A DNA stretch of 44,813 nt from a virus (taxonomy: Duplodnaviria > Caudoviricetes): the IMG/VR virus record IMGVR_UViG_3300006169_000011, positions 1-44,813 of that record; one strand, given 5' to 3'. Of this stretch, positions 1,451-44,788 are shown one piece after another (positions within the stretch are counted from its first letter, which is position 1; each line of letters begins with the position of its first letter). The notes beneath the pieces were generated by a model. The model searched no databases. It saw only the letters and a program-made list of their open reading frames with translations, and was not told the DNA's origin. The position numbers and the translations under genes are program-made.

Positions 1451-4400
1451 TTGCAGAACATCGACATTAACTTCATAGGTCATGGTAATTTTGCCCAGGT
1501 TCAGGGGCAGGTCGCCGCGCTTAAAAAGCAGTTTGATGCTCTGAACGTGGCTATGAATCGTGCTGCCTCGCCGCTAACGGGTGGCACGGTAAATCCAGAG
1601 GCATATCGAAATGTAGCACGCTCAGCAGAGCAGATGAGCGCCACCTTCCGTGCTGCCGCTGCATCCTCAGGACAATTCAATATTCATCAGTACCGTGGAA
1701 TCTCTGCGGCTGAGCAGTATACCCAACTTCTACAGAAGCAGAAGTTGGGTCTTTCACAAGTAACAAAGGGAATGGGGACCCTCAAAGCAGCCTACCGCGA
1801 GCAACTCGCCCTGCGCCAGTCGTTCTTCACACAATGGGGACGAGACGAGGCCGGTAGAATCGTTGGAGACCTAGCAGTTCCAAACGCAGTACACAAGAGT
1901 TGGGACACATTCGCCAATAGGGCCGGATTCGCCAGAGAGGTTCTGAGGTCTGTCTCCACCGCCACGATTAACTGGGGTAAGAATGTCCAGTGGGCCGGTA
2001 GACAGTTGATGGTAGGTTTCACCATGCCTATTGCTGCATTCGGAGCAGCAGCAGCAGTATCATTCTACAAGGCAGACCAGCAACTAACTCGTATCGCCAA
2101 GGTTTATGACACCACCGCTAAGGGAGTCATGGCCCAGGAGAGGGAACTCGCAAAACTTCGTGCGGATTCCATGAAGACCGGCGAGGTTGCTGCACAGCAG
2201 TATGGTGTGGCTTTGGAGGATACGTTGTCTATTGAGGCCGACTTTGCCGCTACCGGCCTTCGTGGCGAGGAACTTATGAGGTCCACCACGGAAACATTGA
2301 AGAACGCAACACTTGGTGAAATCGACCATCAAGTTGCTCTAAAGGCAACCATCGCCCTACAGAGCATCCTTCAGCAGAGCGCCCAGGAAACCGCTGACTC
2401 ATGGGCATACATGAACGCCGTTGAAAACGCCACCAGCCTGAGCATGAGCGACTTCGCTGAGGCAATCCCTATTGCCATGGGACCGCTGGAGAAGATGGGC
2501 GGAAATCTGCAAGACCTTGGAACATTGCTCGTTGCCATGAAGGAACGTGGAATTGAGGCAAACCAGGGCGCAAACGCAATCAAGTCCATGATGCAGAGGC
2601 TCTACCGTCCTTCACAGCAAATCCGTGAAGAATGGCAGGCGATGGCCGGTGTCAACCTGAAGCAACTGGTATCACAGTCCGATAGCGTTATGGAGATTCT
2701 GAAGGGTCTTGATACAGCAACCAGAAACCTACCGGATGAGAAGAGAATTCAACTTCTCGGTGGACTATTCGGAACCTACCAAGTAACCCGTATGTCTGCC
2801 ATGATGGAAGGTCTGACCGAGGGAACAAAGCAGGTTAGCCGAGTCCTTGACGTCAACAACGACAGTGTGGCACAATGGCGCAGAATTCAAGACCGAGAGT
2901 TGGAGAAGTGGCAGAACTCGGTATCCGGTCGATTCAAGACCGCAATTGCAGAGTTGAAGGTCCAACTCGCAGAAATGGGCGAGCCGTTCCTCAACGCCGC
3001 CACCTCTGTCCTTGAAGTTGTCACGAAGATTATCGGCGCATTCAACGACCTACCAGAAGGCGTAAAGAAGTGGGCCATGCTTTTGGCTGTGGCCACCGCC
3101 ATTGCCGGTCCTATAATCATGCTCATCGGTCTTACCGCCAACCTCGTAGGATGGATTGGCAAGTCGGCGGTAGCCATGATAGGACTCGCCACAAGATTCA
3201 AGATTCTTGACAGAGACAGCGTTGCCGCAAAGGCAGCCTCCGACCTGGCCACCAAGGGATTTGTGACCCAGACCGAGGCAATAGTAATGCAGACACAGGC
3301 CATGAACGCTCTACACAAGTCTTATGTGGCAGCAGCACAAGCCGCAGGGTTCATGCCCACCGCTGCACAAGCCGCTGCCGCGCAGCACGGAATAATCGGC
3401 TCTAGTGCGCTTTATGCCGCCACAGGAAGGGCATACAAGCCAACATATAACCCCGCCACTCCACCGAAGACCGGAGGTCTGGGAGGCGCATCTGGTGTTA
3501 TGATTCTTCCTCAATCTACATATGACAAGATAGATGATGCAACTCGTGGAGCCGCAAACAACACCAAGGAAATGAGTTCCGGTATGAAGATGGCAGCAGC
3601 CAGCAGCGGGCTCATGGTCGGCTCTATGGCAGCAATGGCACTAACCAGCAACGAGACAGCAAACAACATCGCCATGTGGGGAATGTACTTTGCCATGTTC
3701 GTTCCGATGCTTTCCGGCCTGGGAACTCTCATGAAGGGGCTCACCGCAGCCAACCTCGCTGCCGGTGCAAGCAAGACCGCAGGATTCCTGAAGAGTGCAG
3801 TAACCTTTGTTCCTAGACTTGCAATGGGAATGGTGACCGGACTCGCAGCGGCGGGCGGTATTGTTACCGCTATTGGTGCCATTGCCGCAGGTCTAGCATT
3901 AGTACAAGCAAAGTCAGACGACGTAGCAGAGAAATGGGATGGAATAGCCAGCAGCGGAAAGGAATGGGCCGGTGTTCTAGGGTTCTCTCACCAGGAAGTC
4001 GGAACAACCGTTGACCCGTCCACAGGTGAAGCCGTCAAGAGCATGGCCGACAGAATCAAGGAAGTCCGCGAGAACATGCCTGACGTTGTTTCAGCAATCA
4101 AGGACGCCAAGAACGAACAACAGGCAATGGACATTGCAATCCGCCAGGGACTCCAGGTATACCGTGAAGGCGGTACAGCCGCAGATGCCCTAGAGGCAAT
4201 CAAACTATCCCTGACAGCAGCATTCGACAGCGCAGCAAAGGCAAAGAGGATGATGCTGAGGTTCGATGTTAAGCCGATGTTCAAGACCGACGACACTGTT
4301 ATCAAGACTGAGATGACACAGATGGTCAGGCAGATGAGAATAGCCTACAACGACGCAATGGAGAAGTCGAATTGGGAGAGTGTCTGGGACTTCATCACTC

Positions 4401-7400
4401 GTGACGACCAAAGTCTGAACGAGGGCTCCCAGCAGCAGGCCGCAAATGCCGCAAAGACATGGTATGCTTCATGGGTCAACCAGTCCAGAAAAGGCAAGAT
4501 GGACATGTTCCGCGAAGTCGAAGGACAGTTCAAGGAAGCCCGAGAAAACATCTTCTCAGGAGTGACAACAAACAGAGAAGCAATGTCCATGCTGGGCCGA
4601 GCCGGTATCCAGGGTGTCGAAGGCATCATCGGAAAGTTCTACGAGTTGCAGAGAATCCAGAAGAACTTCGGAGAGTTCCAGAGAAAGAACCAGCCAGCAT
4701 GGAAGGCAATTGAGAATGCCTTCGCTGCCGCAGGAATGGACGCCGAGAAGTTGTTCAACAAGTTCCGCCAGGTCACATCAGCCCAAGGAATCTTCATTCG
4801 CAACTTGGCTCTGGAGGCCGGTCTGTCAGAGGAAGCCGCAAACAACATTCAAGGAATGGAAGGCTTCATCCGACGCATGGTTCCAGGCTCAATGAAGATT
4901 CGTGACGCATTCCGTGGCTACACGGCAGCATGGCAGGGAATGGATGCCGCTATCAGAATTGCTTCATTCGGCCAGAAGGGAATCACCAAGGAACAGAAAC
5001 TTCAGATTCTCAACCAGTGGAGAGTAAAGGCCGGTCTACAGGAAACCAACAACCTCGCTGATGGATTCAAGGTTCGTGTCAAGGATGCCACCGCTGCCGC
5101 AAAGGAACAAGGCGGCGTTCACGATGAGAACATCAAGAAGATAAAGAAGCAGGCCGAAGAGGTTGCCAGAATTGCCGCAGCATGGCAGAAGGTGGACAAG
5201 GCCGCTGCCCTCCGTGGAGCATTCGAAGAGACCATGCAGGATATCGCTGACATTGCCACAGAGAATTTCGAGGCACGCGAGGAAAGGGCAATGAAAGCCC
5301 TCGATGCTCGCGCTGAAGCACGCATGGACTCATTCGAAAGAAGGTCCGAGCAGATTTCCAACAGGTTCGACCGCCAGATGGAACAGATGCAGCGCGAGCA
5401 GGAACGTGAGACCGAGCAGTTGCAGCGTGAGCAGGAGCGTGAGACAAACCGCCTACAGATTCAGCAAGAAAACCAGATGAACCGTTTCGACAACCGCTGG
5501 GAAGCAAGAACCGAGGCGGTAGAGGACCATTATGACAAGCGTATAGACCGTGTAAACAAGGCAATCAGGGCTGAGGAAAGAGCAGAGGAAATCCGCCAGC
5601 GCATCTTCGATGCAGAGGCCACCCGAATTCAGCGACTCAACGATATGGCGAACCGCCAGATTGACTTCAGCCTTGCTCTTAACACAGGAGACTTCGATGA
5701 AGCAGCAAGGGTCAGAAATGATGCTTCCGCCCAGGTTGAGCAGTGGGCACTGGAAGACGCCGGAAATGCAGCAAAGAACCGCTCAGAGCGCAGGGTCAGC
5801 AGGCTACAGAACACCCTCGACAGAATCGAGAAGGAGCGCGACACCCGCATAGAAGCCCTTCAAGATATGGAAGAGGCTCACCGCCGACGCCTGGAGCGTG
5901 AACAGCAGCGTGAGCAGAGGGCTTTGGAGCAGTCTCAGCAAAGAGAGCAGAGAGCACTCGAAAACAAGCAGAAGCGTGAGCAGCGTGCAATGGAGCGTGA
6001 GCGCGAGCGTTGGGAGCGCCAGAACGAGCGTCGTCGTGAGCAACTACAGGATGAAATCGAGATGGAGCGCGAGGCGGCAGAGAAGATTTGGGAGACCCGC
6101 CGAGACCACCTCGACAAGCAAATAGAGAAGTTCCAGAACTTCATCCCTCGCAATGAGGCAATGCTGAAGAAGCACACCCAGCGTCTACTCGGTGAGTACA
6201 TCGACACCGGAAAGTCCATTGAAGGAAAGGCCAAGGACTGGTCCGGTAGAATCGGTGACTTGCTACAAGAGAACGTCCGTGATGCAGCACGCTCCATTAA
6301 GTCTGATATCAACTGGGAGGCGGTAGGTAACTCTGCTGCCACCGCTGTTATCCGTGGCGCATTCGGAATGAGCAAGAACGAATTCTTCAAGTGGCTTGGT
6401 CTGCCAGGAAGCGCCGGTAAGGGTGCAGACGGTGGTGGCGGAAAGAACAACGAGAAGAACCGAATGACACCACAGGAACGTCGCAATATGAAGCGCAACG
6501 TTGGCCCTATCCGTCGTCACACCGGAGGTGTCATCGGAATTGGTGGAGACAGCGGCCCTGGTGGAACGCCACGAGGAAGCAAACAAGAAGTGCCATTCAC
6601 CGGACTAAAGGGTGAGGGTGTTCTTAACACCCAGGCTATGAGCCGTCTCGGCCCTTCTGGATTCAGGTCACTAAACGACGGAAGTGCATTCAGCCATTCA
6701 TCAGCAGGAATTCGAAGCGGTAAGCACCGTGGAGGATTCGGAGAGGGCGTCGCTGGTCTTCTAGGTGGATTCACCGCTGGTGTATCCGGTATGATGGTCG
6801 GCGCTGTCAAGCAGGCGGTACTTCAAAAGGGTCGTGAGCAGCAGGCCCTAGACGCAGCAGCCAGTGGAATGTTCACCGCTGGAAAGGCCGGTATGTATGG
6901 TGGTCGATTCTTCGGTAAGGAACAACTGAGAAACGCAGCAATCATCGCGTCGGTCGGTAGCAGGATGAGAATGAGCCCACGCGACATTATGATTGGTATT
7001 ATGACCGCTATTACCGAGTCCGGTCTTATCAACGTAAAGTTCGGTGACCGTGACTCTCTCGGTCTGTTCCAGCAGCGTCCTAGCCAGGGCTGGGGAAGTC
7101 CAAAGCAGGTTACCGACCCAGAATATGCATCACGCAAGTTCTTCCAGGCCCTAAAGAGAATCAAGAAGCGTGACGGAATGACTCCATGGATGGCAGCACA
7201 GTCGGTCCAGAGGTCCGGTACAGCCGATGGTTCCAACTATAAACCATACTGGGATGATGCACAGGCAATCTTCGGAAGAGGACTGAAGGAGTCTGAGATT
7301 GCAGGGGTCAGAAGCGGAGGCCACAGATACCCAGGAGTCGAGCCGGTAAAGCCATGGGTACGTGAAGCCGCTGAATACCTAGGTGCACTACATGATATCA

Positions 7401-8356
7401 AGACCATCGGTGGCTACCGCCCGACAAGCGCCGTAGCAAACTCCGACCACCCTAAGGGACTCGCGCTCGACCTTATGACCCGCAACTTCGCACAAGGTAA
7501 CGCAATTGCCAAAACTGTCGAAAGAATGTGGAAGGTGCTTGACGTTACCTACATGATTTGGAAGCAGCGCATCAAGACAAACCCACGTGGACGCTGGGAG
7601 CGCATGGAGAATCGTGGAAGTCCAACGGCAAACCACATGGACCACGTTCACCTTTCCTTCCAGAAGAGGGGAGACCTGGACAACCTGCTGAGGTCCGGTA
7701 GAGTGGGTGACGGTCCTCCTATTCACGGTAAAGGAAAGAAGCACCGCCCAACCAGAAGAGGAACCCCAATGTCCCGTGGTGGTGCAGTCCACGACCAGTA
7801 TACCGGATATCCCGCCCTCGACATTGACGGTCAGACCGGAGACCCCATTTACGCCATTAGGAATGGTCGTGTAACCAAGGTAAGACACCTTGGATACTCA
7901 TATGGAAATCACATCTACCTGGACCACGGTGGATTCAGTTCCCTGTATGCCCACCTAAAGAGCACCAAGGTACGTGGCGGGCAGAAGGTCCGCTCCGGTC
8001 AGATAATTGGTAGAATGGGTAGCACCGGGCACTCCACCGGCGACCACCTCCACTTCGGAGTAACCAGACCACCGGGACCACGAGCATACTACCCTAACCT
8101 CAATGTAGGCGGAAACATCAAGTGGGACAACACCATCGCCAACCTCCACAAGAACGAGACCGTGCTGACCGAGCCGCTGAGCCGTCAACTGAAGGACGGT
8201 ATCGCAAATCTTGACAGAGGAACTGGAGACGTGTATGATATTGATATCTCGTATGCGGACCCAACCGTTGACCCTAGGAAACTGGCTGACGATGTTATCA
8301 GGGAGATTGACCGCAAGAAGTCCAGAACAGGAGTGAGAAGGACACTTAGACCATGA
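1451..8356 (+). CDS. Tape measure protein with C-terminal lysozyme-like, LAS/M15-like and M23 peptidase domains
   Basis: 2301 aa; TP901-type TMP core, Ala/Gly-rich hydrophobic stretches, long coiled coil; motifs DRDSLGLFQQRPSQGWG..VQRS, HPKGLALD..HMDHVHLSF, ALDI..LYAHL..STGDHLHF. Confidence 0.93.
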   Translation: MQNIDINFIGHGNFAQVQGQVAALKKQFDALNVAMNRAASPLTGGTVNPEAYRNVARSAEQMSATFRAAAASSGQFNIHQYRGISAAEQYTQLLQKQKLGLSQVTKGMGTLKAAYREQLALRQSFFTQWGRDEAGRIVGDLAVPNAVHKSWDTFANRAGFAREVLRSVSTATINWGKNVQWAGRQLMVGFTMPIAAFGAAAAVSFYKADQQLTRIAKVYDTTAKGVMAQERELAKLRADSMKTGEVAAQQYGVALEDTLSIEADFAATGLRGEELMRSTTETLKNATLGEIDHQVALKATIALQSILQQSAQETADSWAYMNAVENATSLSMSDFAEAIPIAMGPLEKMGGNLQDLGTLLVAMKERGIEANQGANAIKSMMQRLYRPSQQIREEWQAMAGVNLKQLVSQSDSVMEILKGLDTATRNLPDEKRIQLLGGLFGTYQVTRMSAMMEGLTEGTKQVSRVLDVNNDSVAQWRRIQDRELEKWQNSVSGRFKTAIAELKVQLAEMGEPFLNAATSVLEVVTKIIGAFNDLPEGVKKWAMLLAVATAIAGPIIMLIGLTANLVGWIGKSAVAMIGLATRFKILDRDSVAAKAASDLATKGFVTQTEAIVMQTQAMNALHKSYVAAAQAAGFMPTAAQAAAAQHGIIGSSALYAATGRAYKPTYNPATPPKTGGLGGASGVMILPQSTYDKIDDATRGAANNTKEMSSGMKMAAASSGLMVGSMAAMALTSNETANNIAMWGMYFAMFVPMLSGLGTLMKGLTAANLAAGASKTAGFLKSAVTFVPRLAMGMVTGLAAAGGIVTAIGAIAAGLALVQAKSDDVAEKWDGIASSGKEWAGVLGFSHQEVGTTVDPSTGEAVKSMADRIKEVRENMPDVVSAIKDAKNEQQAMDIAIRQGLQVYREGGTAADALEAIKLSLTAAFDSAAKAKRMMLRFDVKPMFKTDDTVIKTEMTQMVRQMRIAYNDAMEKSNWESVWDFITRDDQSLNEGSQQQAANAAKTWYASWVNQSRKGKMDMFREVEGQFKEARENIFSGVTTNREAMSMLGRAGIQGVEGIIGKFYELQRIQKNFGEFQRKNQPAWKAIENAFAAAGMDAEKLFNKFRQVTSAQGIFIRNLALEAGLSEEAANNIQGMEGFIRRMVPGSMKIRDAFRGYTAAWQGMDAAIRIASFGQKGITKEQKLQILNQWRVKAGLQETNNLADGFKVRVKDATAAAKEQGGVHDENIKKIKKQAEEVARIAAAWQKVDKAAALRGAFEETMQDIADIATENFEAREERAMKALDARAEARMDSFERRSEQISNRFDRQMEQMQREQERETEQLQREQERETNRLQIQQENQMNRFDNRWEARTEAVEDHYDKRIDRVNKAIRAEERAEEIRQRIFDAEATRIQRLNDMANRQIDFSLALNTGDFDEAARVRNDASAQVEQWALEDAGNAAKNRSERRVSRLQNTLDRIEKERDTRIEALQDMEEAHRRRLEREQQREQRALEQSQQREQRALENKQKREQRAMERERERWERQNERRREQLQDEIEMEREAAEKIWETRRDHLDKQIEKFQNFIPRNEAMLKKHTQRLLGEYIDTGKSIEGKAKDWSGRIGDLLQENVRDAARSIKSDINWEAVGNSAATAVIRGAFGMSKNEFFKWLGLPGSAGKGADGGGGKNNEKNRMTPQERRNMKRNVGPIRRHTGGVIGIGGDSGPGGTPRGSKQEVPFTGLKGEGVLNTQAMSRLGPSGFRSLNDGSAFSHSSAGIRSGKHRGGFGEGVAGLLGGFTAGVSGMMVGAVKQAVLQKGREQQALDAAASGMFTAGKAGMYGGRFFGKEQLRNAAIIASVGSRMRMSPRDIMIGIMTAITESGLINVKFGDRDSLGLFQQRPSQGWGSPKQVTDPEYASRKFFQALKRIKKRDGMTPWMAAQSVQRSGTADGSNYKPYWDDAQAIFGRGLKESEIAGVRSGGHRYPGVEPVKPWVREAAEYLGALHDIKTIGGYRPTSAVANSDHPKGLALDLMTRNFAQGNAIAKTVERMWKVLDVTYMIWKQRIKTNPRGRWERMENRGSPTANHMDHVHLSFQKRGDLDNLLRSGRVGDGPPIHGKGKKHRPTRRGTPMSRGGAVHDQYTGYPALDIDGQTGDPIYAIRNGRVTKVRHLGYSYGNHIYLDHGGFSSLYAHLKSTKVRGGQKVRSGQIIGRMGSTGHSTGDHLHFGVTRPPGPRAYYPNLNVGGNIKWDNTIANLHKNETVLTEPLSRQLKDGIANLDRGTGDVYDIDISYADPTVDPRKLADDVIREIDRKKSRTGVRRTLRP
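5377..5480 (+). repeat. 33-bp (11-aa) tandem repeats in tape measure, block 1
   Basis: MEQMQREQERE TEQLQREQERE TNRLQIQQENQ. Confidence 0.75.
5892..6040 (+). repeat. 33-bp (11-aa) tandem repeats in tape measure, block 2
   Basis: LEREQQREQRA LEQSQQREQRA LENKQKREQRA MERERERWERQ. Confidence 0.75.
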
Positions 8357-8904
8357 GTTTCAACAAACTGGTGAAGCCAGAGATAATGACCTGGCGCAAG
8401 AGCAACTCGGACCCCGAGATTATCGTAACGGACCACAACAGGGGCGCACTGTCAATCGACACCGAGGAAATTGCCAAGCAGCAGAGAATGGTGAACGGCA
8501 CGCTGCGCAAGTTCATCGTGGCCGAGAAGCGCACAATCTCAATGTCATGGGAAATGCTGCCGACAGCAGTCGGGGCGGTAGTCGGTGGAGAGTCCAACGG
8601 CACCTATTACGGTACCAGCACACTCCAAATACTAGGCGGCGATGGAATCAGAGACTTCATCCGTGACGTTAGGTCCAAGTCTTCATGTGATGCGGACTTC
8701 TACGTAAGGCTGTATCGTGGAGACGACAAGCGACCAGATGACGCAACCAGAGTCCAGGCTGACATTGACAAGATTCTGAACCGCAAGGACGACATTCACG
8801 TGATGGTTGAAGACCTGTCCTGGGACATTCAGAAGAGAGGCGCAACCTACGAAGGAATCCCCTACGACTTTTGGAATGTGTCGGTGACTCTCGTTGAAGT
8901 ATAG
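8353..8904 (+). CDS. Minor tail protein (distal-tail-like)
   Basis: ATGA-coupled to tape measure; RMVNGTLRK..KRTISMSWEMLP and C-terminal WNVSVTLVEV pattern. Confidence 0.7.
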   Translation: MSFNKLVKPEIMTWRKSNSDPEIIVTDHNRGALSIDTEEIAKQQRMVNGTLRKFIVAEKRTISMSWEMLPTAVGAVVGGESNGTYYGTSTLQILGGDGIRDFIRDVRSKSSCDADFYVRLYRGDDKRPDDATRVQADIDKILNRKDDIHVMVEDLSWDIQKRGATYEGIPYDFWNVSVTLVEV

Positions 8905-35987: not shown

Positions 35988-35993
35988 GAGCAC

Positions 35994-36662
35994 ATGGATA
36001 AATACTGCCCAGGGTGTGACCAAGATTTAGATATATCACGATTTGGTAAGAACCGTTCTACAAAGGATGGATTACAAAGTTATTGTAAGGAATGCCGTAA
36101 GCGCCTGACACAGACCAAATATGCCCAAGCAACCAGAGAATATCAAAGAGGTTATCGACGCCAAAACAGAGAATGGTTGTCAGAGTATTCAAAGGGTCGG
36201 TATCAAGAAAACCCAGAATATTACAAACAGAAGTCGAAAGAATGGAAGGCTGCAAACCCCGAACGAAAGAAAGAGTTGGATAGGCTCTGGAATCTAAATA
36301 ATCGAGAGCGAGCCAATGAAAATAGTAGGCGATGGGCTGCCGCTAACCGAGAAAAGCGAAAAGAGATTCTGCGAAAATACAATGAATCTCACCGTGAAGA
36401 ACTTAGAATAAGGTCTGTGCGCTATCGAGCACAGAAGCAAGAAAATGGGTGCGTGCCATACACAAAAGAACAACTGCTGGGTAAGTTACTAGTGTGGCGA
36501 TATCGCTGTTACCTATGCGATAAGCCATTAGATGATACATTGCATTGGGACCATGTAAAGCCTATATCAGCGGGCGGTATGGATATGCTCGCTAATTTAA
36601 GGCCGACTCATGGCAGATGCAATCAGAGCAAGGCGGCTCAATGGCCGCTGAAAGGAAGGTGA
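35994..36662 (+). mobile_element. Free-standing HNH homing endonuclease
   Basis: AT-rich; N-terminal CxxC..F...DGL.SYCKEC domain, charged helical spacer, CYLC..DHVKP..GG....NL...H..CN. Confidence 0.85.
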
Positions 36663-36668
36663 TTTAAT

Positions 36669-37285
36669 ATGGTCAAGCCAATGCGTATTGGGTTCGACCT
36701 TGATTAGACGGGGTTCTATACAACTTCGGAAACTCCGTAAAGAGATACCTCGACCACATAGGAAAGGGTGACCTCTGGAAGTCCGGTCCAACGGAAAGAC
36801 CATATTGGGACTTTTTCAAGGATTGGGGTTGGACGAGCAAGGAATTCGTAGACCTCTGCAACGCGGGAGCAGACGCGGGATTCATCTTCTGCGGTCCTTG
36901 CAGAGAGGGCGCGGTAGAGGCTGTGCAACTCGTCAAGGAACTAGGTCATGATGTTGTCATCATCACCGACCGCAGATTCGGAAGCAGCCCAGAGGTTTCT
37001 CAGAAGAACACCTACGAGTGGCTTGCACAGCACAATATTCCCTATGACGAACTGTGGTTCTCAGCAGACAAGACGGTTGTCCGAACTGACATGTTTGTAG
37101 AAGACAAAATCGAGAACTACGATGCTCTTGAAAAGGCCGGTACTGATGTGTACCTTATCAACAGAGCATGGAACTACATCGAAGGCGGTGACAACAGAAA
37201 GCGCATCCCCTCAGTCTCAGTCTATGCAGGCATAGTTGAACTGAAAACGTTTTGGGTTGCAAGAACTCAGCCACCTATGGTATAA
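36669..37285 (+). pseudogene. HAD-family 5'(3')-deoxyribonucleotidase interrupted in motif I (pseudogene or translationally recoded)
   Basis: MVKPMRIGFDLD-stop (36669-36707), then DGVLYNF...IITDR...K...DMFVEDK..N continuing in another frame to 37285. Confidence 0.8.
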
Positions 37286-37286
37286 T
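37257..37286 (+). promoter_or_regulatory. Promoter for terminase operon
   Basis: TTGCAA-18-TATAAT with TG extension. Confidence 0.65.
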
Positions 37287-37303
37287 TTACCTAGGAGGCC
37301 ATC

Positions 37304-37516
37304 ATGGTTTGCGAAATGCAGTATGGTAGCAATACCATCACACCAGGCACCTACATCAGATTCAAGAATACCCCAGGTGTCTTTAGGTTCAGAGGAATCG
37401 TTCATCAGGAAGATGAAGACAGAATTTTGTGTGTTGGACAGGAAGGAGACTACCACGCCTTTTCTGCCGCCCGATTCATGGGGCCGGTAATGAAAAGGAG
37501 CAGAAGATTCAAGTGA
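37304..37516 (+). CDS. Small hypothetical protein
   Basis: SD AGGAGG, 70 aa. Confidence 0.6.
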   Translation: MVCEMQYGSNTITPGTYIRFKNTPGVFRFRGIVHQEDEDRILCVGQEGDYHAFSAARFMGPVMKRSRRFK

Positions 37517-38061
37517 CAAGACTACCAGAGAAGGCCGAACGCTATGAGGACATGGACAAGATTGTCGGCATGTACGTCAAGCGACAAGGCCCTACAGAAA
37601 TAGCCAGGCAGACAGGATTCAAACGCGCCTATGTCGTGGAAATCCTCGATGAGTGGAAAGCCTCAGCCCGACACATGGACGAAATGCGAGACCGTGTGGC
37701 TGAGGCTATCCGTATTATGGAGGAACACTTCAACTTCCTCGTGCGTGAAGGCCACAAGACTCTCTCGCAGGTTGACGAGGAAATAGGCAACAACGGAATC
37801 GACCATCAGTTGCTATCCCAGAGGACGAAGGCGTCAGCCTTCCTGCTGGACCTGGAACAGAAGAAAATCGACACGCTACAGAAGGCCGGTCTGCTGGACG
37901 CAGCCGAGGTTGGCGACCAAGTTGCCGAAATGGAGCGTCGTCAGGGAATCATCGTTGACATTCTGAGAAATGAACTGTGCCCAGCCTGTCGTCAGAAGGT
38001 CATGCGCCGACTAGGAGAGGTAACAAATAAAACCGAGGTTGTCGTAGTGCATGAGCAATGA
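37513..38061 (+). CDS. Putative terminase small subunit
   Basis: GTG overlapping upstream stop; N-terminal HTH (PTEIARQTGFKRAYV) plus coiled coil; overlaps terL start. Confidence 0.65.
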   Translation: MTRLPEKAERYEDMDKIVGMYVKRQGPTEIARQTGFKRAYVVEILDEWKASARHMDEMRDRVAEAIRIMEEHFNFLVREGHKTLSQVDEEIGNNGIDHQLLSQRTKASAFLLDLEQKKIDTLQKAGLLDAAEVGDQVAEMERRQGIIVDILRNELCPACRQKVMRRLGEVTNKTEVVVVHEQ

Positions 38062-40939
38062 TTTTCTAGACTATTTCAACGCCCTCAGTAATGAGGACTT
38101 CGAAGAGAAGCCGGTAGAGATTGAAGAGTTCGTAGAGTCAGACGAATTCCTGGGACTACCGCCCCTTTCTCAAATCCAGTATGAAATCATCAGGGCCGGT
38201 AGCCAGATATACAAGTATGAAACTCTAGTCTCCCTCTATGGAGAGACAAAGGCAGCAACCCGCTGGGAAGAGACATTCAACGAGGTCATTCTCCAACTAG
38301 GAAAAGGCTGCCATGCCCCGTATACACCAGTCTACAACCCAGAAACAGGCAACTGGAACAGACTTGACTCTGCTAGAGAAGATGGTCTGGTAGTTTCCGA
38401 TGATGGTTCCGTCCACTACGCCACAGAATCATTCAAAGAGGGGTATGGAAGAATGGTCAGAGTCCGCACTGCTCTTGGTTTCGAAGAAGACGTTTACGTT
38501 GGGCACAAGTATCTATCATATACAAGGTCAAGGTTTTATCACAGATACAGAGGGTACCAACCGGAATACCGGCGCGTGGATGAAATTTCTGTAGGTGACA
38601 GAATTGCCATAGGTGTTGGATTTGATGTGTCTCAGCCGGTTGACATGCCTTTGGAACATGCAGAACTGATAGGGTACTGGCTAGGCGATGGGATGATGCC
38701 AACTGATAGCAACCCAACGATAAACATGGACTTCTGTGCCGATGAGACCGAAAGTATATCAAGATACGAGGCCCTTTGCATTTTCATTGGAGACAATCCG
38801 AGCAAGACCAAGCACCCAACAAAGAACCTGATATTCTTCCGGCATGGCAGAAACTCAAAGGCTGTTGCCCTGGCAAGGGAATATGGGCTGTGGGGTATGC
38901 GCTCGAAAACAAAGTGTGTTCCTGACGTTGTTTGGGCCGGTAGCAACAAGGTTGTCTCAGCCACCCTATCTAAGTTGTGGCAGACAGACGGATGCGTCTA
39001 CTCAAAGAATGGACTGACAGCAGAGTTCGTCTCTGTGTCAAGGCAACTGTCCACGGACGTTCAGAGAATGCTACTCAGACTAGGTGTTCCATCTTACATT
39101 AGATTCAGAACTCCCAAGTCAAACTTTGCTAACCCATCGGAAGCGGGATATGTGACTGTCACCAGTCAGGAATGCATGAATGCATTCTTGAATGTTGTTG
39201 AGTTGCTTGACCACAAGAGGGCAGAGCCCCTTCAGAAATTAGGAAGGGTGTATGCCAGGATGCAAGAGGGCCGGTACTACGATAGAGTTGTCTCTATTGA
39301 AGAAATAGGAGAAGGTGAATACTGGACAAGAACTGTTCCTGATACCGGCAACTATCTGGGCAACGGTATGCTATCCGCGAACAGCGGCAAAGACTACACA
39401 TCAGCAATCTCCTGTGCTTATGTAGTCTATCTGCTGCTATGTCTGAAAGACCCCGCCCGCTACTATGGAAAGCCGAAGAACGACCCTATTCACATTGTCA
39501 ATATCGCTGTGAACAGCGACCAGGCTCGCAACGTTTTCTTCAAAAGATTTGCCGAGATTATCAAAGACTGCCCTTGGTTCGACGGAAAGTATGAGCAACT
39601 TAAATCTCCACCGTCAATGGAATTCGACAAGAATGTCATGGTCCTCTCAGGACATTCCGAGCGAGAAGCCTTTGAGGGTCTAAACTTAATATACGCGGTG
39701 TTGGACGAGATTAGCGCATTCGCGCTGGAATCCAACACAGGAAACGAGCAGGCCAACACCGCCAGCGCAACCTATGACACTTACAGTAACTCAGTAACCT
39801 CACGTTTTGCCAAGTTCGGAAAACTCATGCTGCTGTCGTTTCCTCGCTTCAAGGACGACTTTATACAGACGAAGTACAATGAGGCAATAGCGGAGAAGGA
39901 AACTCTTCAAAAAACCCATACATTCAAACTAAAGGAAGACCTCCCAGACGGAACACCAAACAACGAGTTCACAATCGAATGGGAGGAAGACCATATCATC
40001 AGATATGAGACTCCTGGCGTGTTTGCGCTCCGTCGCCCTACATGGGATGTTAACCCAACCGTAGACATAGAAGACTTCAAGATTGCCTTCTACAAGAACC
40101 CTGGAAACGCTCTAGGTAAATTTGCATGTATGCCTTCTAACCTAGAAGAGGGTTTCTTCAAGAACGTCGAGGCAATCAAGTCGGCGTTCTCCAAGATAAA
40201 CGGAGTGGACGAGCATGGAATATTCCACCCCAAGTTCCAGCCGATAGAGGGAACCAAGTATTACATGCATGTTGACCTCGCCCAGAAGCACGACTACTGC
40301 GCTGTGGCTCTGGCACACGTAGACAGATGGGTTGACATTGAGGTTGGCTCAAACTATAAGGAAACTCTGCCATTCGTCGTTGTCGATGCAATCAGATGGT
40401 GGACACCCGAGCCCGGTAGGGACGTGGACTTCAAAGACGTTGTAAGTTACATCAAGGCGGTAAGGAGAAAGAAGTTCGATATCGACCTCGTAACCTTCGA
40501 CCGCTGGAACTCCAACGATACCATGAAAGACCTGGAGCAAAACGGAATCAATACCGACACCCTGTCTGTGGACAAGCCACACTACGACGACTTTTTGTCC
40601 GTTATGTACGATGCTCGTCTACTTGGCCCGAATGAGCAACTTCTGAAAGACGAACTGTCCCAACTGAGAATCGTAATCAAGGGAAAGAAAGTCACAATCG
40701 ACCACCCACGCTCAGGCACTAAAGATTTATCTGACGCCACTTGCGGAGCGATTTTCAATGCTGTAACATGGACCGAGAAGCCACGCAACGTGGCCGCGCA
40801 AGTCATGACCCTGGAAGACATACGCAAGGCGAACAGGCCGGTAGAGGAAAAAGAGTCCACCTTGCCTATCAAGGCACCAGCAGGCACAAAGATACCGAAA
40901 GAGTTGGAAGACTACATCTTTGCAGCCCGTATCGTCTAG
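38051..40939 (+). CDS. terL: Terminase large subunit, intein-containing
   Basis: P-loop GKG/SGKD rejoined after intein removal; VLDE Walker B; nuclease HVDLA, TFDRWN, IDHP..G.KD..DA. Confidence 0.92.
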   Translation: MSNDFLDYFNALSNEDFEEKPVEIEEFVESDEFLGLPPLSQIQYEIIRAGSQIYKYETLVSLYGETKAATRWEETFNEVILQLGKGCHAPYTPVYNPETGNWNRLDSAREDGLVVSDDGSVHYATESFKEGYGRMVRVRTALGFEEDVYVGHKYLSYTRSRFYHRYRGYQPEYRRVDEISVGDRIAIGVGFDVSQPVDMPLEHAELIGYWLGDGMMPTDSNPTINMDFCADETESISRYEALCIFIGDNPSKTKHPTKNLIFFRHGRNSKAVALAREYGLWGMRSKTKCVPDVVWAGSNKVVSATLSKLWQTDGCVYSKNGLTAEFVSVSRQLSTDVQRMLLRLGVPSYIRFRTPKSNFANPSEAGYVTVTSQECMNAFLNVVELLDHKRAEPLQKLGRVYARMQEGRYYDRVVSIEEIGEGEYWTRTVPDTGNYLGNGMLSANSGKDYTSAISCAYVVYLLLCLKDPARYYGKPKNDPIHIVNIAVNSDQARNVFFKRFAEIIKDCPWFDGKYEQLKSPPSMEFDKNVMVLSGHSEREAFEGLNLIYAVLDEISAFALESNTGNEQANTASATYDTYSNSVTSRFAKFGKLMLLSFPRFKDDFIQTKYNEAIAEKETLQKTHTFKLKEDLPDGTPNNEFTIEWEEDHIIRYETPGVFALRRPTWDVNPTVDIEDFKIAFYKNPGNALGKFACMPSNLEEGFFKNVEAIKSAFSKINGVDEHGIFHPKFQPIEGTKYYMHVDLAQKHDYCAVALAHVDRWVDIEVGSNYKETLPFVVVDAIRWWTPEPGRDVDFKDVVSYIKAVRRKKFDIDLVTFDRWNSNDTMKDLEQNGINTDTLSVDKPHYDDFLSVMYDARLLGPNEQLLKDELSQLRIVIKGKKVTIDHPRSGTKDLSDATCGAIFNAVTWTEKPRNVAAQVMTLEDIRKANRPVEEKESTLPIKAPAGTKIPKELEDYIFAARIV
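38309..39382 (+). mobile_element. Intein with LAGLIDADG endonuclease in terL P-loop (358 aa)
   Basis: Starts Cys (CHAPYT), ends GNGMLSAN before Ser+1; LIGYWLGDG and LWQTDG motifs. Confidence 0.9.
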
Positions 40940-40942
40940 GTC

Positions 40943-40971
40943 TTGACTCAGCCCCATTTTCATGCTATAAT
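40943..40971 (+). promoter_or_regulatory. Promoter
   Basis: TTGACT-17-TATAAT with TG extension. Confidence 0.75.
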
Positions 40972-40993
40972 GTACGCGAAGGGAGGTTCTCAA

Positions 40994-41614
40994 ATGGAGA
41001 CGATGGAAGAGTTGCTGGAGCAAAGAGCATCCAGAGAAGCATTGATTTGCGAACTACGCAGACGTGACGGTGACACGTGTCAGTATCCTGGCGCAAATCA
41101 CAAACTAGACTTCAGTGTCACCGAGGGTAACCAGCAGGTTACCATCGACCACTGGTTCGGTCAGGCGTGGGCATACGCGAACGGGTGGACCTACGAACAG
41201 GTCTGGGACTTGTCCAACCTTAAGTTGATGTGCAAGGGCCACAACGCCAAGAAGGGCTCACGTGTCCCAAATGAGGACGGTACCCTTCCTGAGCGTACTC
41301 GAAAGACCTTCCGCTACAGGCGGCAGAAGAGGGCAAACCGTCCTGAGGTCTGTGATTCATGTAATTCTGGTCGCAATCTGGGACCGGACGAAATATGTGC
41401 GGCCTGTGGTTCCGGCCCTATGCCGCACAGGTGGCCTAGATGGGCTAAGGTTCCAAGTAAGGAATGTTTACACGACGGTACCTTTTGGTGTTGGGCGTGT
41501 GCATCAGGTGTCATTGAACGGCCAAGTGCCACAGAGATGATATTGATAAATGGAGAAGGTGGAGACGAAGACGAAAGTCTGTCAGAAATGTCAGACAACG
41601 AAGAGTCTCTCTGA
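40994..41614 (+). CDS. HNH endonuclease with C-terminal zinc fingers
   Basis: RRDGDTC..TIDH..NL.LMC..HN..KG; CDSC, CAAC, C.H..CWAC; SD GGGAGG. Confidence 0.78.
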   Translation: METMEELLEQRASREALICELRRRDGDTCQYPGANHKLDFSVTEGNQQVTIDHWFGQAWAYANGWTYEQVWDLSNLKLMCKGHNAKKGSRVPNEDGTLPERTRKTFRYRRQKRANRPEVCDSCNSGRNLGPDEICAACGSGPMPHRWPRWAKVPSKECLHDGTFWCWACASGVIERPSATEMILINGEGGDEDESLSEMSDNEESL

Positions 41615-41984
41615 ATTCCATAAGGATAATTCACGAGTTGATGGGTACTCCTACGTTTGTAAAGAATGCAGGAGTACCCACCGACATGCATATTATGAGG
41701 CAATTAAGGTTCGGCTCAAAGAAAATTATGACCCCGTAGCCCAAAGAGAGAAAAGACTTCTGCTAAAATATGGAATAACACTTGAAGATTATCAAGTAAT
41801 GTATGATGAGCAGGATGGTAGATGTAAAATTTGCCAAGAAAAATTTGAGTTGCTACATGTAGACCATTGTCACGAAAGCGGGAAAATCAGGGGATTGTTA
41901 TGTCAATATTGTAATACTTCCCTGGGAGGCTTCCGAGACAGTATTGAAAATTTGCAAAGGGCAATCGAATACTTAGGAGGATAG
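41550..41984 (+). mobile_element. Endonuclease VII-family homing-like nuclease
   Basis: KYGIT..Q.G.C.IC..VDHCH.SG.IRGLLC..CN..LG; AT-rich. Confidence 0.85.
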
Positions 41985-41985
41985 A

Positions 41986-42609
41986 TTGACTAATCCAGAT
42001 TACACCCACCTGGCCGTGGTGGTAGACAGAAGCGGCAGCATGGCAACCTGCTATAAGGATATGATTGGTGGGCTTGACACCTTCTTCGGTGACCAGGCAA
42101 GCCAGCCGGGAGACTGTCTTGTAGACTATTTCCAGTTCGACACCGAATACGAGTCGGTATTTGAGGATAAGCCGGTAGGAGTTGCTAAGGCACAACTTAG
42201 CCCTCGTGGTGCTACCGCCCTCTTGGATGCCATTGGTAAGACGGTGACGACCCTTGGGGAGAAGTTGGCTGCAAAGCCAGAAGACGAACGACCAGGCAAG
42301 GTCATTGTCGTAATCGTCACGGACGGTTACGAGAACTCGTCAAGAGAATGGACGAAGGGCTCCGTAAAGAAGGTTGTCGAGACACAGCGCAATGACTATA
42401 ATTGGGACTTTGTGTTCCTTGGCGCAAACATGGACGCGGTTTCCGAGGGGGCATCCTTCGGAATGCTTCGTGGCTCTAGCCTGACGTACGACACGCATGA
42501 CACTGCGGCTGCTACGGCATCGCTGTCGGCGTACACAACGCAGACTAGAAGTTTCGGTGCGGCTGCGTTCTCAGACGAAGACCGTAGGAAGAACGCCCCG
42601 AAGTCTTGA
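41986..42609 (+). CDS. vWA-domain protein
   Basis: MIDAS DRSGSM, T.LLDA, TDG.ENSS, FLGAN. Confidence 0.85.
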   Translation: MTNPDYTHLAVVVDRSGSMATCYKDMIGGLDTFFGDQASQPGDCLVDYFQFDTEYESVFEDKPVGVAKAQLSPRGATALLDAIGKTVTTLGEKLAAKPEDERPGKVIVVIVTDGYENSSREWTKGSVKKVVETQRNDYNWDFVFLGANMDAVSEGASFGMLRGSSLTYDTHDTAAATASLSAYTTQTRSFGAAAFSDEDRRKNAPKS

Positions 42610-42634
42610 CCGTACCTTAGACCCCTGGTATAAT
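42606..42634 (+). promoter_or_regulatory. Promoter
   Basis: TTGACC-17-TATAAT with TG extension. Confidence 0.75.
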
Positions 42635-42654
42635 CGGGGCATCAGGGAAGCGAC

Positions 42655-42685
42655 GGAGGGAGCCAGATACCCGCTGGCTCCCTCC
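42655..42685 (+). promoter_or_regulatory. 5' UTR stem-loop
   Basis: GGAGGGAGCCAG-7 nt-CTGGCTCCCTCC, perfect 12-bp stem just upstream of SD. Confidence 0.6.
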
Positions 42686-42702
42686 CACTAGAAAGGAAAA
42701 GT

Positions 42703-43674
42703 ATGTCTTCTGCTCTTAGAGAGCGTACAAGCGAAATCATCGAGGCCGGTAAGGCTGAAAGAGGAAATTTCGAGCCAACCGGCGTTCCTCTAGCCATGTA
42801 TAACTACTGGCTTGGACACTCATTCACAGACAGGGCCAACAGGATTCGCCTGGGTATCCGTCGTGAGAACTTCTGCCATTTCTGGCGGGTAGTGGCAATC
42901 TGGGCACCCCTCATGTTCCTGGTGGTACGTCCGACAGCAATCACCGCTGATGCTTTGGCCAGGTTCTTTTCAACCAGACTCGGCCAGGCGGTAGCCATTG
43001 TGTTGTACGGCGTCCTCTTCTCCCTTATGGGACTCATAGGAGGATTAGCCCTGGTGTCATTTGTAGCCCTGACACTCCCTGTCGTCGCACTAGGACTTGT
43101 GTTGGGAATCTTGCTGGACAAGGCTGTGCCACAGACGACACAGGGTAAGGTTTTGTATGGAGGGGCAATGCTCCTGACACTACCGGCCTCTGCTCCCACC
43201 TATGGAGTAATCAAGTTCTACCGCTGGTGGCCCCGCGAGTGGACAGCGCCATTCTGGAGGGGAGTATGGTTTGCCATTGCGGGTGCTCTCGGGCTCGTGG
43301 CGGCTGTTATCGCAGTCGGTGGTTTCATTGCAGGAACCATGCAGTACGGATGGTGGTTTGTGCCCGCCCTTGCCGGTGGTATTGCGGCATTCATAGGGGT
43401 AGGAATGGTCCTGATTTCCGGTATGATGTGGCTTGGTGAGTTTATTCAAGGAAAGCGCAGAGTCGCTGTCCGTCAAAGAGAGAGCGCACGTGCCGAGGCA
43501 ATTGCCGAAGGCACCTACGTCGCCCCATCGGTTAGGTTCAAGCAAAGTCTCTTTGCGAGATTCTTCAGGGGACTCGGAGACCTGATTGTCTTCGGAACCC
43601 AGGTGGCACGAGTCAAGAAATGGGGCGTATGCCCCCTCGTAGAAATCGAGCATGACAATGTGGGTGTGGGTTAA
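42703..43674 (+). CDS. Multi-pass membrane protein
   Basis: About 6 hydrophobic segments; NFCHFWR and CPLV flanking motifs. Confidence 0.75.
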   Translation: MSSALRERTSEIIEAGKAERGNFEPTGVPLAMYNYWLGHSFTDRANRIRLGIRRENFCHFWRVVAIWAPLMFLVVRPTAITADALARFFSTRLGQAVAIVLYGVLFSLMGLIGGLALVSFVALTLPVVALGLVLGILLDKAVPQTTQGKVLYGGAMLLTLPASAPTYGVIKFYRWWPREWTAPFWRGVWFAIAGALGLVAAVIAVGGFIAGTMQYGWWFVPALAGGIAAFIGVGMVLISGMMWLGEFIQGKRRVAVRQRESARAEAIAEGTYVAPSVRFKQSLFARFFRGLGDLIVFGTQVARVKKWGVCPLVEIEHDNVGVG

Positions 43675-43837
43675 CCTGCCTTATGCCTGCTTTGGCATAA
43701 AGGTCACCTGTGAGAAGGTTGTCGATGCCGCACCCATCGCTGGCTGGATGATAGGAAAAGACACAAAGTTCATCCGTGACTGGATTGTCTCAAAAGGTGG
43801 AAAGTACGTCTGCTTGACACCAGACGAGAACGCATGA
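43652..43837 (+). CDS. Small hypothetical protein
   Basis: 61 aa; ACFGI...VVDAAPIAGWMIGK. Confidence 0.55.
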   Translation: MTMWVWVNLPYACFGIKVTCEKVVDAAPIAGWMIGKDTKFIRDWIVSKGGKYVCLTPDENA

Positions 43838-43843
43838 TACAAT
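43814..43843 (+). promoter_or_regulatory. Promoter for RNA cluster
   Basis: TTGACA-18-TACAAT with TG extension. Confidence 0.7.
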
Positions 43844-43913
43844 TGAATGAGTGGGCGTTCGTGCATTGAACTTAATGGTATTTGCTTGGCATTAGCGCAT
43901 CGCGGCCACCCAC

Positions 43914-43976
43914 GGCGGTTGACAAACCAGTAAAGGTCGGGAAGTTGAGGGTTGTAACTCCCGTCTACCGCCACCA
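43914..43976 (+). ncRNA. tRNA-like RNA with ACCA end, lacking a canonical anticodon arm
   Basis: GGCGGTTGAC pairs with GTCTACCGCC followed by ACCA; T-arm-like GGGTTGTAACTCCC; 1 nt upstream of tRNA-Gln. Confidence 0.5.
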
Positions 43977-44077: not shown

Positions 44078-44788
44078 ATGGAACGAGGACTAGGGCGCTA
44101 TCAGGAATTCGATGAGCGCAGCAGAAAATTCAGGGCGATAGTCGGAGTAGAAGACCTCCCCCTTCAGAACAAAATCTGGACGGTCCCTGTGTGGAACGAC
44201 CAGGGACAGGAAGGTGCCTGCGTCGGCTTCGGCTGGGGACATGAACTTGCGGCCCAGCCCGCTCCCTATATGACAGACTATGATTTTTCCATGAAGATTT
44301 ATCATAGAGCACAGCAACTTGACCAGTGGTTCGGTGAGGACTATGAAGGAACATCGGTACTCGCAGGAGCCAAAGCAGTAAGAGAACTGACCACCCCTAC
44401 AGGCCAACCCTTGATTGAGGGATATTCCTGGGCGTTCGGCACGGAGGAACTTTGCCGAAGCCTGGCCTTCAAGGGGCCGGTAGTCTTTGGATGCGACTGG
44501 TATGAAGGAATGTGGGATACAGACGAGAATGCCTACATTCACAAAACGGGCGGTAGAGTCGGAGGCCATTGTGTCTGTCTCAACAGAGTTGTCCTAAAGA
44601 AGATAGACGCAACCAAGCCCCTGCTATGGAACAACGTGAATATGGAAACATCATTTGTCAGGGGCCGGAATAGTTGGTCTAGAGATTGGGGTTACTATGG
44701 TAACTTCCGCTTAAGTTTAGTAGATTTAGATGCATTGGTAAAGGATGGGGCGGATGCTTGTATTCCTTATGGAAGGCACTGGCTATGA
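44078..44788 (+). CDS. Papain-like (C1) cysteine peptidase
   Basis: DQG.EGACVGF (Gln/Cys), GGHCV (His), RNSW..DWG (Asn). Confidence 0.85.
   Translation: MERGLGRYQEFDERSRKFRAIVGVEDLPLQNKIWTVPVWNDQGQEGACVGFGWGHELAAQPAPYMTDYDFSMKIYHRAQQLDQWFGEDYEGTSVLAGAKAVRELTTPTGQPLIEGYSWAFGTEELCRSLAFKGPVVFGCDWYEGMWDTDENAYIHKTGGRVGGHCVCLNRVVLKKIDATKPLLWNNVNMETSFVRGRNSWSRDWGYYGNFRLSLVDLDALVKDGADACIPYGRHWL

Follow-up and report, generated by a model that had tools for sequence, protein, structure and literature searches.

A selected, evenly spaced two-part DNA word in a Stanwilliamsviridae-like phage fragment and its relatives, a candidate priming signal of the phage DnaG primase

The IMG/VR virus record IMGVR_UViG_3300006169_000011 (Duplodnaviria; Caudoviricetes), analysed over its entire 44,813 bp and hereafter called the window, carries essentially every gene on its plus strand and is strewn with the seven-base word G[CG]CGGTA, which is followed a few nucleotides further 3' by a C-poor patch. 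Word and patch form a real, strongly selected, two-part and evenly spaced DNA signal that occurs in variant forms across a large phage family. The reading that we favour, at a probability somewhat short of even and from sequence alone, is that they mark where the DnaG primase encoded by the phage prefers to start. An initial annotation of the window had drawn attention to an eight-base form of the word, GCCGGTAG, and had missed the G/C degeneracy of the core; the second element on its 3' side, the evenness of the spacing and the variants that differ by lineage across the family are new here. In literature titles and abstracts, a coverage that leaves out most subscription journals, neither the word nor any dispersed motif in the BE and BK phages of Streptomyces was found described, and the term 'motif' is absent from the accessible portions of PMC5764925 and bioRxiv 2024.02.16.580700.

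A recount located GCCGGTAG at every position given by the initial annotation (28/28), 22 on the plus and six on the minus strand, with 17 of the 22 plus copies being GGCCGGTAG; the variant GGCGGTAG, put at about a dozen, occurs 13 times on the plus and seven times on the minus strand. The core proposed there, CGGTAG, was wrong. The core is G[CG]CGGTA, which is found 105 times against 13.4 expected on the two strands summed and drops to 0.1-2.3x expected upon any single substitution, a G before it (65/105) or after it (48/105) being preferred rather than required.

1850..44555, plus strand: 71 copies of G[CG]CGGTA (first 1850, last 44549), 23 of them full GG[CG]CGGTAG; mean gap 610 bp, longest 2094 bp
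498..43972, minus strand: 34 copies of G[CG]CGGTA, eight of them full GG[CG]CGGTAG; mean gap 1317 bp
1849..1866, plus strand: example of a two-part site, GGCCGGTAG at 1849-1857, a 4-nt spacer and the C-poor patch at 1862-1866

Expected counts were derived from three protein-preserving nulls (synonymous shuffling, synonymous shuffling with 3-1 context, and synonymous shuffling within dipeptides; 300 shuffles each), and the enrichment survives all three instead of being abolished by them. The 22 copies of GCCGGTAG compare with 0.8, 1.2 and 2.2 expected, the highest count in any shuffle being 7. In the 51 open reading frames (ORFs), G[CG]CGGTA occurs 72 times on the coding strand against 6.7, 6.9 and 11.6 (one site more than the 71 of the whole window, as it is counted twice in overlapping ORFs) and 33 times on the non-coding strand against 6.2, 6.4 and 7.1; GG[CG]CGGTA occurs 47 times against 1.7-3.0. 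The copies fall in differing reading frames (35, 2 and 35), as had been seen before. The strand bias described by the initial annotation is real on the plus strand but amounts to about 2:1 (71:34, p=0.0004) rather than to one-sidedness, because the minus strand is enriched too, and the 'genome-wide' occurrence holds for the 44.8-kb fragment only. Its proposal of a selected DNA-level signal is borne out by the codon and dipeptide-context shuffles, by both strands and by the synonymous conservation in relatives described below. That the excess should be a mere by-product of codon, dipeptide or restriction-avoidance bias is largely refuted already and seems to us exceedingly improbable: avoided words can shift a null, and the phages phiC31 and Jayan show many inflated words, but the excess holds under three nulls, in two reading frames and on both strands, and comes with even spacing, a second element and synonymous conservation at 2-10x expectation in 11 pairs of relatives. 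Another word, ACCGCTGG (12 copies on the plus strand, none on the minus), stood out under a Markov model and lies outside the top words under the codon null, and was put down to codon usage. An origin of the sites in a repeat or mobile element was dismissed for lack of an extended shared flank among the 105 sites, as judged by eye.

Much of the room that the encoded proteins leave for the word is taken up by it. GGSCGGTAG (S, G or C) is written at 23 of the 32 coding-strand positions where the protein permits it, and GSCGGTA at 72/180 permitted coding and 33/182 permitted template positions, compared to 0-9% for 11 control words. The gaps between plus-strand sites are more even than chance, with a coefficient of variation (CV) of 0.70 versus 0.96 for sites drawn from protein-permitted positions (0/2000 draws as low), and those on the minus strand are borderline (CV 0.74, p=0.052). 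Spacing was even at p<0.05 in seven of ten genomes tested, the exceptions being G001, NiceHouse and G006, and mean gaps in the ten range from 0.46 to 1.2 kb, which is the scale of Okazaki fragments. Nearly all plus-strand sites (67/71) lie inside called genes, and they do not cluster at promoters or gene starts.

The second element, poor in C and rich in G, occupies offsets 12-16 counted from the G that opens the core, or 6-10 nt past its last A. Its five positions hold on average 0.58 C at used sites versus 1.25 at permitted sites that are not used (103 and 240 positions; p=4e-11), and at offsets 18-22 used and unused sites are alike in C content. The offsets were picked after the profiles of the window and of groups of relatives had been viewed, so that the p-values of the patch are not blind. 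The effect is found in 5/5 groups of relatives (p from 3e-4 to 2e-13), also at synonymous positions. C is lost at offsets 12-17 in the window, with a peak at 14-16, and at 11-14 in BE1-like and BE2-like phages; BK phages show a T-rich run immediately 3' of the core. Hairpin avoidance was rejected as the cause of the patch because C is undepleted at offsets 8-10, where hairpins would be tighter, and even enriched at offset 9.

The phage to which the window belongs can be placed by its genes. Profile hits run from the major tail protein through the tape measure and minor tail proteins to a helix-turn-helix (HTH) protein, DnaB, DnaG, single-strand DNA-binding protein (SSB) and DnaE, then to RecA, a Holliday junction resolvase (Hjc), a Cas4-like nuclease, RuvC and an intein-bearing terminase. 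The same order from tail genes to terminase is found in Stanwilliamsviridae (Streptomyces BE and BK phages, the gene order of Streptomyces phage Muntaha matching that of the window) and in the Rhodococcus phages Trina, Weasels2 and NiceHouse, and the tail, replisome and recombination genes of the window show synteny and homology with those of BE/BK phages. DnaE is 52-55% and DnaB 44-51% identical to their BE/BK counterparts, DnaB matches at E<=1e-40 come from Streptomyces and Rhodococcus phages only (136 records), and the best matches of the primase are 49-54% identical. A search for close relatives by Megablast returned 157-bp matches only. Judged by these likenesses, the window is a fragment of a Stanwilliamsviridae-like phage and represents a separate lineage.

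The signal was followed in a family set of 28 sequences, namely the window and 27 relatives (11 of them named phages; 26-140 kb each, several covered in part), and 20 loci from metagenome records entered as pieces of 12-23 kb only. A hexamer containing [CG]CGG, or its complement, ranks among the top four of 4096 in 27 of the 28 sequences and tenth in the remaining one, G019; since about 5% of hexamers qualify, it is the count of sequences that matters and not any single top rank. The tail that completes the word differs between lineages. TA is used by the window, its nearest relative G004, NiceHouse and the BE1-like G001-G003 (these three also use TG and CA), TA and TG by G006, TG by Karimac, Naboo and Coruscant, GT by four BK phages, G024, G026, G005 and Trina (the latter also TA), and AA by Weasels2; relatives of 35-39% GC have GGCGG words, and the signal is weak or different in G013, G014, G017 and G019. 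In complete relatives the orientation of the word tracks gene blocks and flips where gene direction flips, the switch lying at about 17 kb in BE and about 5.7 kb in BK phages. Pooled over 19 relatives that have genes on both strands, genes in the majority direction give 1828 observed/686 expected on the coding strand (2.7x) and 372/286.6 on the template strand (1.3x), and those in the minority direction 172/59.7 (2.9x) and 91/34.7 (2.6x), respectively; compared with BE and BK phages, the window has the word at higher density and with a weaker strand bias. The template-strand enrichment rules out an RNA-level signal for the window and, together with the enrichment of both strands in the minority genes of relatives, places the signal in DNA. 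A role in protecting the ends of a linear genome was discarded, as the polarity does not switch at mid-genome.

Conservation at synonymous sites argues for selection as well. In 11 pairs of relatives, some of them reciprocal or with a genome in common, words were kept at unchanged amino acids in 42-69% of cases versus 5-33% expected, compared to 38-42% versus 31-39% for three control words; in the window itself, testable sites were few (2/2, 2/3 and 2/6 kept). Longer GC-rich repeats, seen under a Markov model only and not in genes (CCGGGGCGGC in G001 and Karimac, W02; GGCGCCGGGCGC and TATATATA in Coruscant, W06), are probably intergenic regulatory repeats. In Muntaha, the genes change direction, and the motif its polarity, at a glycosyltransferase gene (L001:5791-6774).

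Such glycosyltransferase genes, found outside the window fragment in 20 of 24 sequences compared, would suit a scheme in which an enzyme of the phage modifies the phage DNA at the word and thereby protects or labels it. We hold this to be very improbable, as a scan of 52 window ORFs turned up no methyltransferase or glycosyltransferase, a modification target would not be expected to show polarity, even spacing or a distal patch, and the window wholly avoids GATC and AGCT, as unprotected DNA would. Both tetramers are at zero copies across positions 1-44813; G004 likewise has neither, and many BE/BK phages are without GATC only. This absence is likely to reflect restriction avoidance and to be a clue to the host.

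The genes on which the favoured and rival readings turn are the following, all assigned by profile hits unless otherwise stated.

21849..22382, plus strand: MerR/HTH_17-like helix-turn-helix protein, conserved in the family and located upstream of DnaB; minor candidate reader
23186..24406, plus strand: DnaB-like replicative helicase
24615..25739, plus strand: DnaG-type primase (CHC2 zinc-binding domain and TOPRIM, with an extra Cys/His-rich TOPRIM insert; profile hits and fold model), the favoured candidate reader; the 368-amino-acid database form starts at about 24633
24762..24845, plus strand: zinc-binding domain of the primase, bounded by its outermost zinc ligands (C44 and C71 in the 368-amino-acid form) and including the beta4 pair T-Y (role of beta4 from PMC2978363)
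25791..26480, plus strand: SSB
26822..30142, plus strand: DnaE-type DNA polymerase III alpha
30684..31706, plus strand: RecA/UvsX-like recombinase, part of the rival reader module
31908-32216, plus strand: Holliday junction resolvase, on one side of the Cas4-like gene
32547..33320, plus strand: Cas4-like PD-(D/E)XK exonuclease, rival candidate reader
33617-34195, plus strand: RuvC-like resolvase, on the other side of the Cas4-like gene

The modelled fold of the window primase (predicted local distance difference test score, pLDDT, of 91; top fold hit the Aquifex primase 2au3) indicates a bona fide DnaG. If this enzyme reads the word, the template of the lagging strand, equal in sequence to the coding strand wherever forks move in the direction of transcription, would be laid bare by DnaB. 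Opposite the invariant C (or the T) of the core, DnaG would then begin an RNA primer that gains stability from the G/C bases copied 5' of this start, and the zinc-binding domain of the enzyme would touch the uncopied 3' bases and the distal patch. The G-or-C degeneracy 5' of the pyrimidine may then reflect the pairing strength of the first primer bases. Because chance alone would supply a match of 7-9 bases only about once in 6 kb of this sequence, selection would add sites at synonymous positions, filling these until gaps reach the length of Okazaki fragments, and minus-strand copies would serve forks moving the opposite way. Priming could in this manner account for the even kilobase spacing on each strand, the orientation with the presumed fork direction, the 10 nt of 3' information and the tails that follow the replisome block of BE phages, although we put its chance of doing so at slightly less than even.

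Known DnaG-type sites (E. coli CTG, Firmicutes CTA, T7 (G/T)2GTC with its '-10 element', M. tuberculosis GC(G/C)) are like the word in their asymmetry, their pyrimidine and some 10 nt of 3' information; primase sites are also spaced at kilobase distances and, as in the window phage, go with encoded DnaG and DnaB. T7 primase prefers TA, TG, GA or GG, all of them dinucleotides without C, at a distance of 9-10 nt on the 3' side of its site, with an A/T-rich spacer in between (PMC12839067), and M. tuberculosis DnaG is cited in the same article as recognizing GC(G/C) plus seven 3' bases. In S. aureus DnaG, the beta4 position and its neighbour switch the preferred site from CTA to CTG (PMC2978363). 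The replisome proteins are described as not further studied in bioRxiv 2024.02.16.580700. A side feature of the window primase is a C-x2-C...C-x2-H insert in TOPRIM (window positions 25470-25530; about residues 280-300 of the 368-amino-acid form) that is invariant across 120 aligned homologues, present in Streptomyces-type members and missing from Rhodococcus and several low-GC members, and possibly forms a second zinc site. It was rejected as the cause of the signal, since the Rhodococcus and several low-GC relatives that are without it carry the word.

Whether the reader is encoded by the host or the phage was approached through chromosomes and unrelated phages. Across 301 actinobacterial genomes, GGSCGGTAG stays at or below about 50 per Mb and mostly below a reversed control, as compared to about 690 per Mb in the window (the tally includes 11 genomes flagged as unpublished, G030, G045, G073, G081, G130, G152, G184, G207, G240, G278 and G300, and no claim is made on any of these singly). 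The words are neither enriched nor polar in a 400-kb sample of the Streptomyces kronopolitis chromosome, no enrichment was found in the smaller actinobacterial genome G067, and GGGCGGTAG in G029 divides into 49 leading and 51 lagging copies (hand count of the first 100 of 120 sites). A 200-kb sample of G118 gave GCCGGTA at 23/9.0, and genome-wide its 75 copies of GCCGGTAG are non-polar, the replichore assignment being doubtful owing to mixed skew. Low chromosomal density is not decisive alone, because a GC-rich host could hold enough sites by chance. A stronger indication is that Karimac (TG) versus Comrade, Annadreamy and Sham (GT), all isolated on S. griseus ATCC 10137, have mutually exclusive tails. 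As chromosomes are without enrichment or polarity and phages of the same host differ in tail, the reader is probably phage-encoded.

Among eight unrelated actinobacterial phages and Myrna, FlowerPower, Satis, Mudcat, ReqiPepy6 and Gravy are without the signal, Myrna and Bxz1 (65% GC) show nothing clear, and Scap1 reaches at most 2x on small counts. In phiC31, GSCGGTA is about three-fold enriched on each strand (16/4.8 and 14/4.3). Mycobacterium phage Patience has a BK-like word, TGGCGGG (28/5.3), evenly spaced and without the C-poor patch, and Bacillus phage Jayan (a distant DnaG and no RecA match) has the symmetric GCGGC/GCCGC. We note that many words are inflated in phiC31 under the codon null (TGAGG 60/16.4, CTGGG 105/50.7; L357-L358). 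The Patience word (L417, L421), usually [CG][CG]TGGCGGG(T) and thus near both Chi and the BK word, occurs 32 times on the plus strand at 2.2-kb spacing (CV 0.46 vs 0.95) and 18 times on the minus strand, in a genome encoding a prim-pol, DnaE, a PD-(D/E)XK exonuclease and a Sak4-like protein. Other one-sided words surfaced on the way: ATATT(T/C) inside genes of ReqiPepy6 (L419; 92/22.3, reverse 4/12.9), Gravy (L420; 90/25.9, reverse 1/15.3) and Scap1 (L359-L360; 20/5.4, reverse 0/1.3), clustered rather than even (CV 1.4 and 2.6) and missing from Mudcat in spite of its similar gene content, and CCGATG (16/2.5, reverse 1/0.5) in L094:1-22628, a distant DnaE-bearing contig of 32% GC.

These surveys bear most directly on the suggestion, which we find doubtful, that the word serves the host helicase-nuclease AdnAB in the manner of Chi, perhaps with retuning by an accessory protein of the phage. 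In a GC-rich host chance would provide sufficient sites, which phages of 35-52% GC could acquire only through selection, the common [CG]CGG core resembles the B. subtilis Chi AGCGG, GGCGGGT is common to BK phages and the unrelated Patience, and the phiC31 counts and the G118 sample point the same way; the over-represented octamers of bacteria in the supplements of PMC8022716 might bear on it. The mutually exclusive tails of phages from one host strain, the unenriched and non-polar Streptomyces sample, the low densities in the 301 genomes, the non-polar distribution throughout G118 and the absence of the signal from the low-GC Mudcat, ReqiPepy6 and Gravy all speak against it, and RecC (PF04257), the one enzyme component searched for, was found in 0/5 large genomes, including Streptomyces G029. 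Chi of RecBCD/AddAB (GCTGGTGG, AGCGG) is likewise G-rich, polar and over-represented inside genes. A Chi, however, is recognised by an enzyme of the host and is in excess in the chromosome of that host, whereas the sampled chromosomes are unenriched here and the word follows phage lineage; on the evidence of host chromosomes it fails as a Chi proper.

To ask which phage protein varies with the word, co-variation was scanned by partial Mantel tests (23 genomes, 707 scanned windows) and gene trees were built within the BE-like group (FastTree). In the trees of the primase, DnaB, SSB and the HTH protein, the TG-tail phages come out as a single clade, and they stand together in the DnaE tree, where they are joined by the GT-tail G026; they form no clade in the RecA, Cas4-like, Hjc and terminase trees, and RuvC is unresolved. 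Of 13 primase columns common to the window and the TA-tail BE1-like phages and not to TG phages, eight are in the zinc-binding region, one column being of the opposite kind, and the eight include, as matched by eye, the beta4 position, which in bacterial DnaG determines the 3' base (PMC2978363). Residues 51-90 of the zinc-binding domain are 69% identical between the window and TA-tail BE1-like phages versus 48% to the TG and GT groups. RecA loop L2 is identical across the BE-like group save for one V/I change.

Several results nevertheless weigh against priming. The primase zinc-binding domain itself does poorly in the scan (partial r of about -0.07 to 0.10, ranks 150-360), in which windows of RecA L2, RuvC, Hjc and the Cas4-like protein make up 28 of the top 30 (best r 0.45). 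The likeness of the window to BE1-like phages in the zinc-binding domain could come from common ancestry rather than convergence. The excess likeness of the window to BE1-like phages is larger in a stretch of DnaE (16) than in the zinc-binding domain (7). The beta4 pairs A-Y, A-F, K-Y and S-F all go with the GT tail, such that no clean mapping emerges, the pair differs between BK phages that use the same word, only one primase column separates T from G tails, and parsimony is near a tie (nine changes on the RecA tree, eight on the primase tree, which has one taxon fewer). The primase sites of T7 and T4 hardly exceed expectation when tested against this null (T7 pentamers 138/112; T4 GTT 975/973 and GCT 686/677), and no precedent was found for primase sites enriched 10-30x; known sites are 3-5 nt long and, in T7 and T4, at most 1.2x enriched, unlike the sharp 7-9-mer of the window with its 11-27x enrichment and lineage tails. 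phiC31 carries its three-fold excess without a match to the window primase, and Patience its evenly spaced word with a prim-pol in place of a DnaG. Finally, the equation of coding strand with lagging-strand template is an assumption. A column-by-column hunt for specificity residues in 12 proteins yielded clade markers only, and the co-evolution tests are split between the primase and a phage-encoded analogue of Chi.

Such an analogue, the main rival reading, which we regard as possible if rather unlikely, would have the Cas4-like exonuclease resect broken ends, pause or cut at the word and hand the 3' strand to the phage RecA. Resection might in that event be limited to about 1 kb and recombination-dependent replication restarted, a proposal we hold with the same reserve. 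Besides the lead of the recombination proteins in the scan, all eight GT-tail genomes fall in one RecA clade (100/100 support), E. coli Chi GCTGGTGG is matched at 6/8 positions by GCCGGTAG and at 7/8 by the BE2 word GCCGGTGG, and Patience combines its BK-like word with a PD-(D/E)XK exonuclease and a Sak4-like protein. On the 3' side of the octamer, A or G at nucleotides 4-7 favours Chi activity (PMC5041463), and it is here that BE1-like and BE2-like phages lose C (offsets 11-14). Lambda exonuclease, another PD-(D/E)XK enzyme, pauses before GGCGA, also a strand-specific word of GGCG type, yet this pause has been described in vitro and at one cos end rather than as a dispersed selected signal (PMC7496540). 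On the other hand, RecA, Hjc and RuvC have hardly any columns (1, 0 and 0) in which the window agrees with TA phages and departs from TG phages, for all the difference in tails, the patch of the window peaks at offsets 14-16, beyond nucleotides 4-7 of Chi, BK words match Chi at only 3-5 of 8 positions, the fragment encodes no helicase-nuclease able to thread and read a strand, and by a rough estimate a G-rich word has a 10-20% chance of matching some known Chi at 6/8. The RecA signal may, in addition, be one gene swap common to BK and Rhodococcus phages. RecA of the window and its relatives is of two types, with L2 starting Q-x-R or Q-T-T-T, and its tree joins BK with Rhodococcus phages and BE-like phages with low-GC relatives, contrary to the DnaE tree; these differing groupings imply that replisome and recombination genes differ in history.

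The HTH protein encoded at 21849 is the third phage product to be weighed; another HTH protein is encoded at 34715. A conserved protein of this MerR/Xis/Cox-like kind could bind the sites as double-stranded DNA, head-to-tail one helical turn apart, and might load or restart DnaB or organise the replicating genome, both of which strike us as improbable. The patch lies 10 bp from CGGTA (offsets 2-6), the G/C degeneracy would suit reading from the minor groove, the gene is present in 22/24 sequences with Atlas hits to MerR-type HTH and Cox-like proteins, and its tree groups the TG phages. Yet the sites sit inside genes rather than at promoters or gene starts, a plain binder leaves their orientation bias and per-strand evenness unexplained, and 0 HTH columns separate the tails.

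Of the candidates put forward in the initial annotation, the primase and Chi-like readings thus remain, a host-determined site and a stoperator are disfavoured, and a modification target is without support. The stoperators of mycobacteriophage L5 are 13-bp sequences in about 30 copies, mostly intergenic, oriented with transcription and bound by the repressor of a temperate phage. The word of the window is likewise asymmetric, multicopy and oriented with transcription, but comes as 105 seven-mers in 45 kb, nearly all in genes and on both strands, and no repressor or integrase hit was obtained among the 52 ORFs of the fragment.

Elsewhere in the window, at 38051-40939, there is a terminase large subunit gene with a LAGLIDADG intein and, after it, a pair of free HNH/endonuclease VII genes. 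Free endonuclease genes, five in all, contain three sites in 2433 bp, which is half the window average on numbers too small to test. Two ORFs (42703-43674 and 19798-20580; 323 and 260 amino acids) are without PHROG or Pfam hits, and tblastn matched neither of them in 13 relatives.

How the zinc-binding domain of DnaG picks the start sites of Okazaki fragments is called unresolved in the primase literature cited here. If the word marks priming sites, a full primase recognition code, distal element included, would be readable straight from genomes, and a family with several natural specificities would provide a test set for the choice of Okazaki starts by this domain. A phage-encoded Chi would represent a new kind of self-recognition in phage recombination. 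It is conceivable, if again rather unlikely, that each lineage has a private Chi system, its word being read by its own Cas4-like nuclease and RecA such that resection stops and replication restarts only on DNA bearing that word; the self-signal would then be written silently in about 40% of permissive codon positions, with word and reader co-evolving in a family that extends from soil to freshwater. Because BE1, BE2 and BK phages share a laboratory host yet differ in word, the question is directly testable. Under either reading, the signal constrains synonymous codon choice genome-wide in cultured, tractable Streptomyces phages, which would affect the recoding and engineering of such phages, as foreign genes would enter without it.

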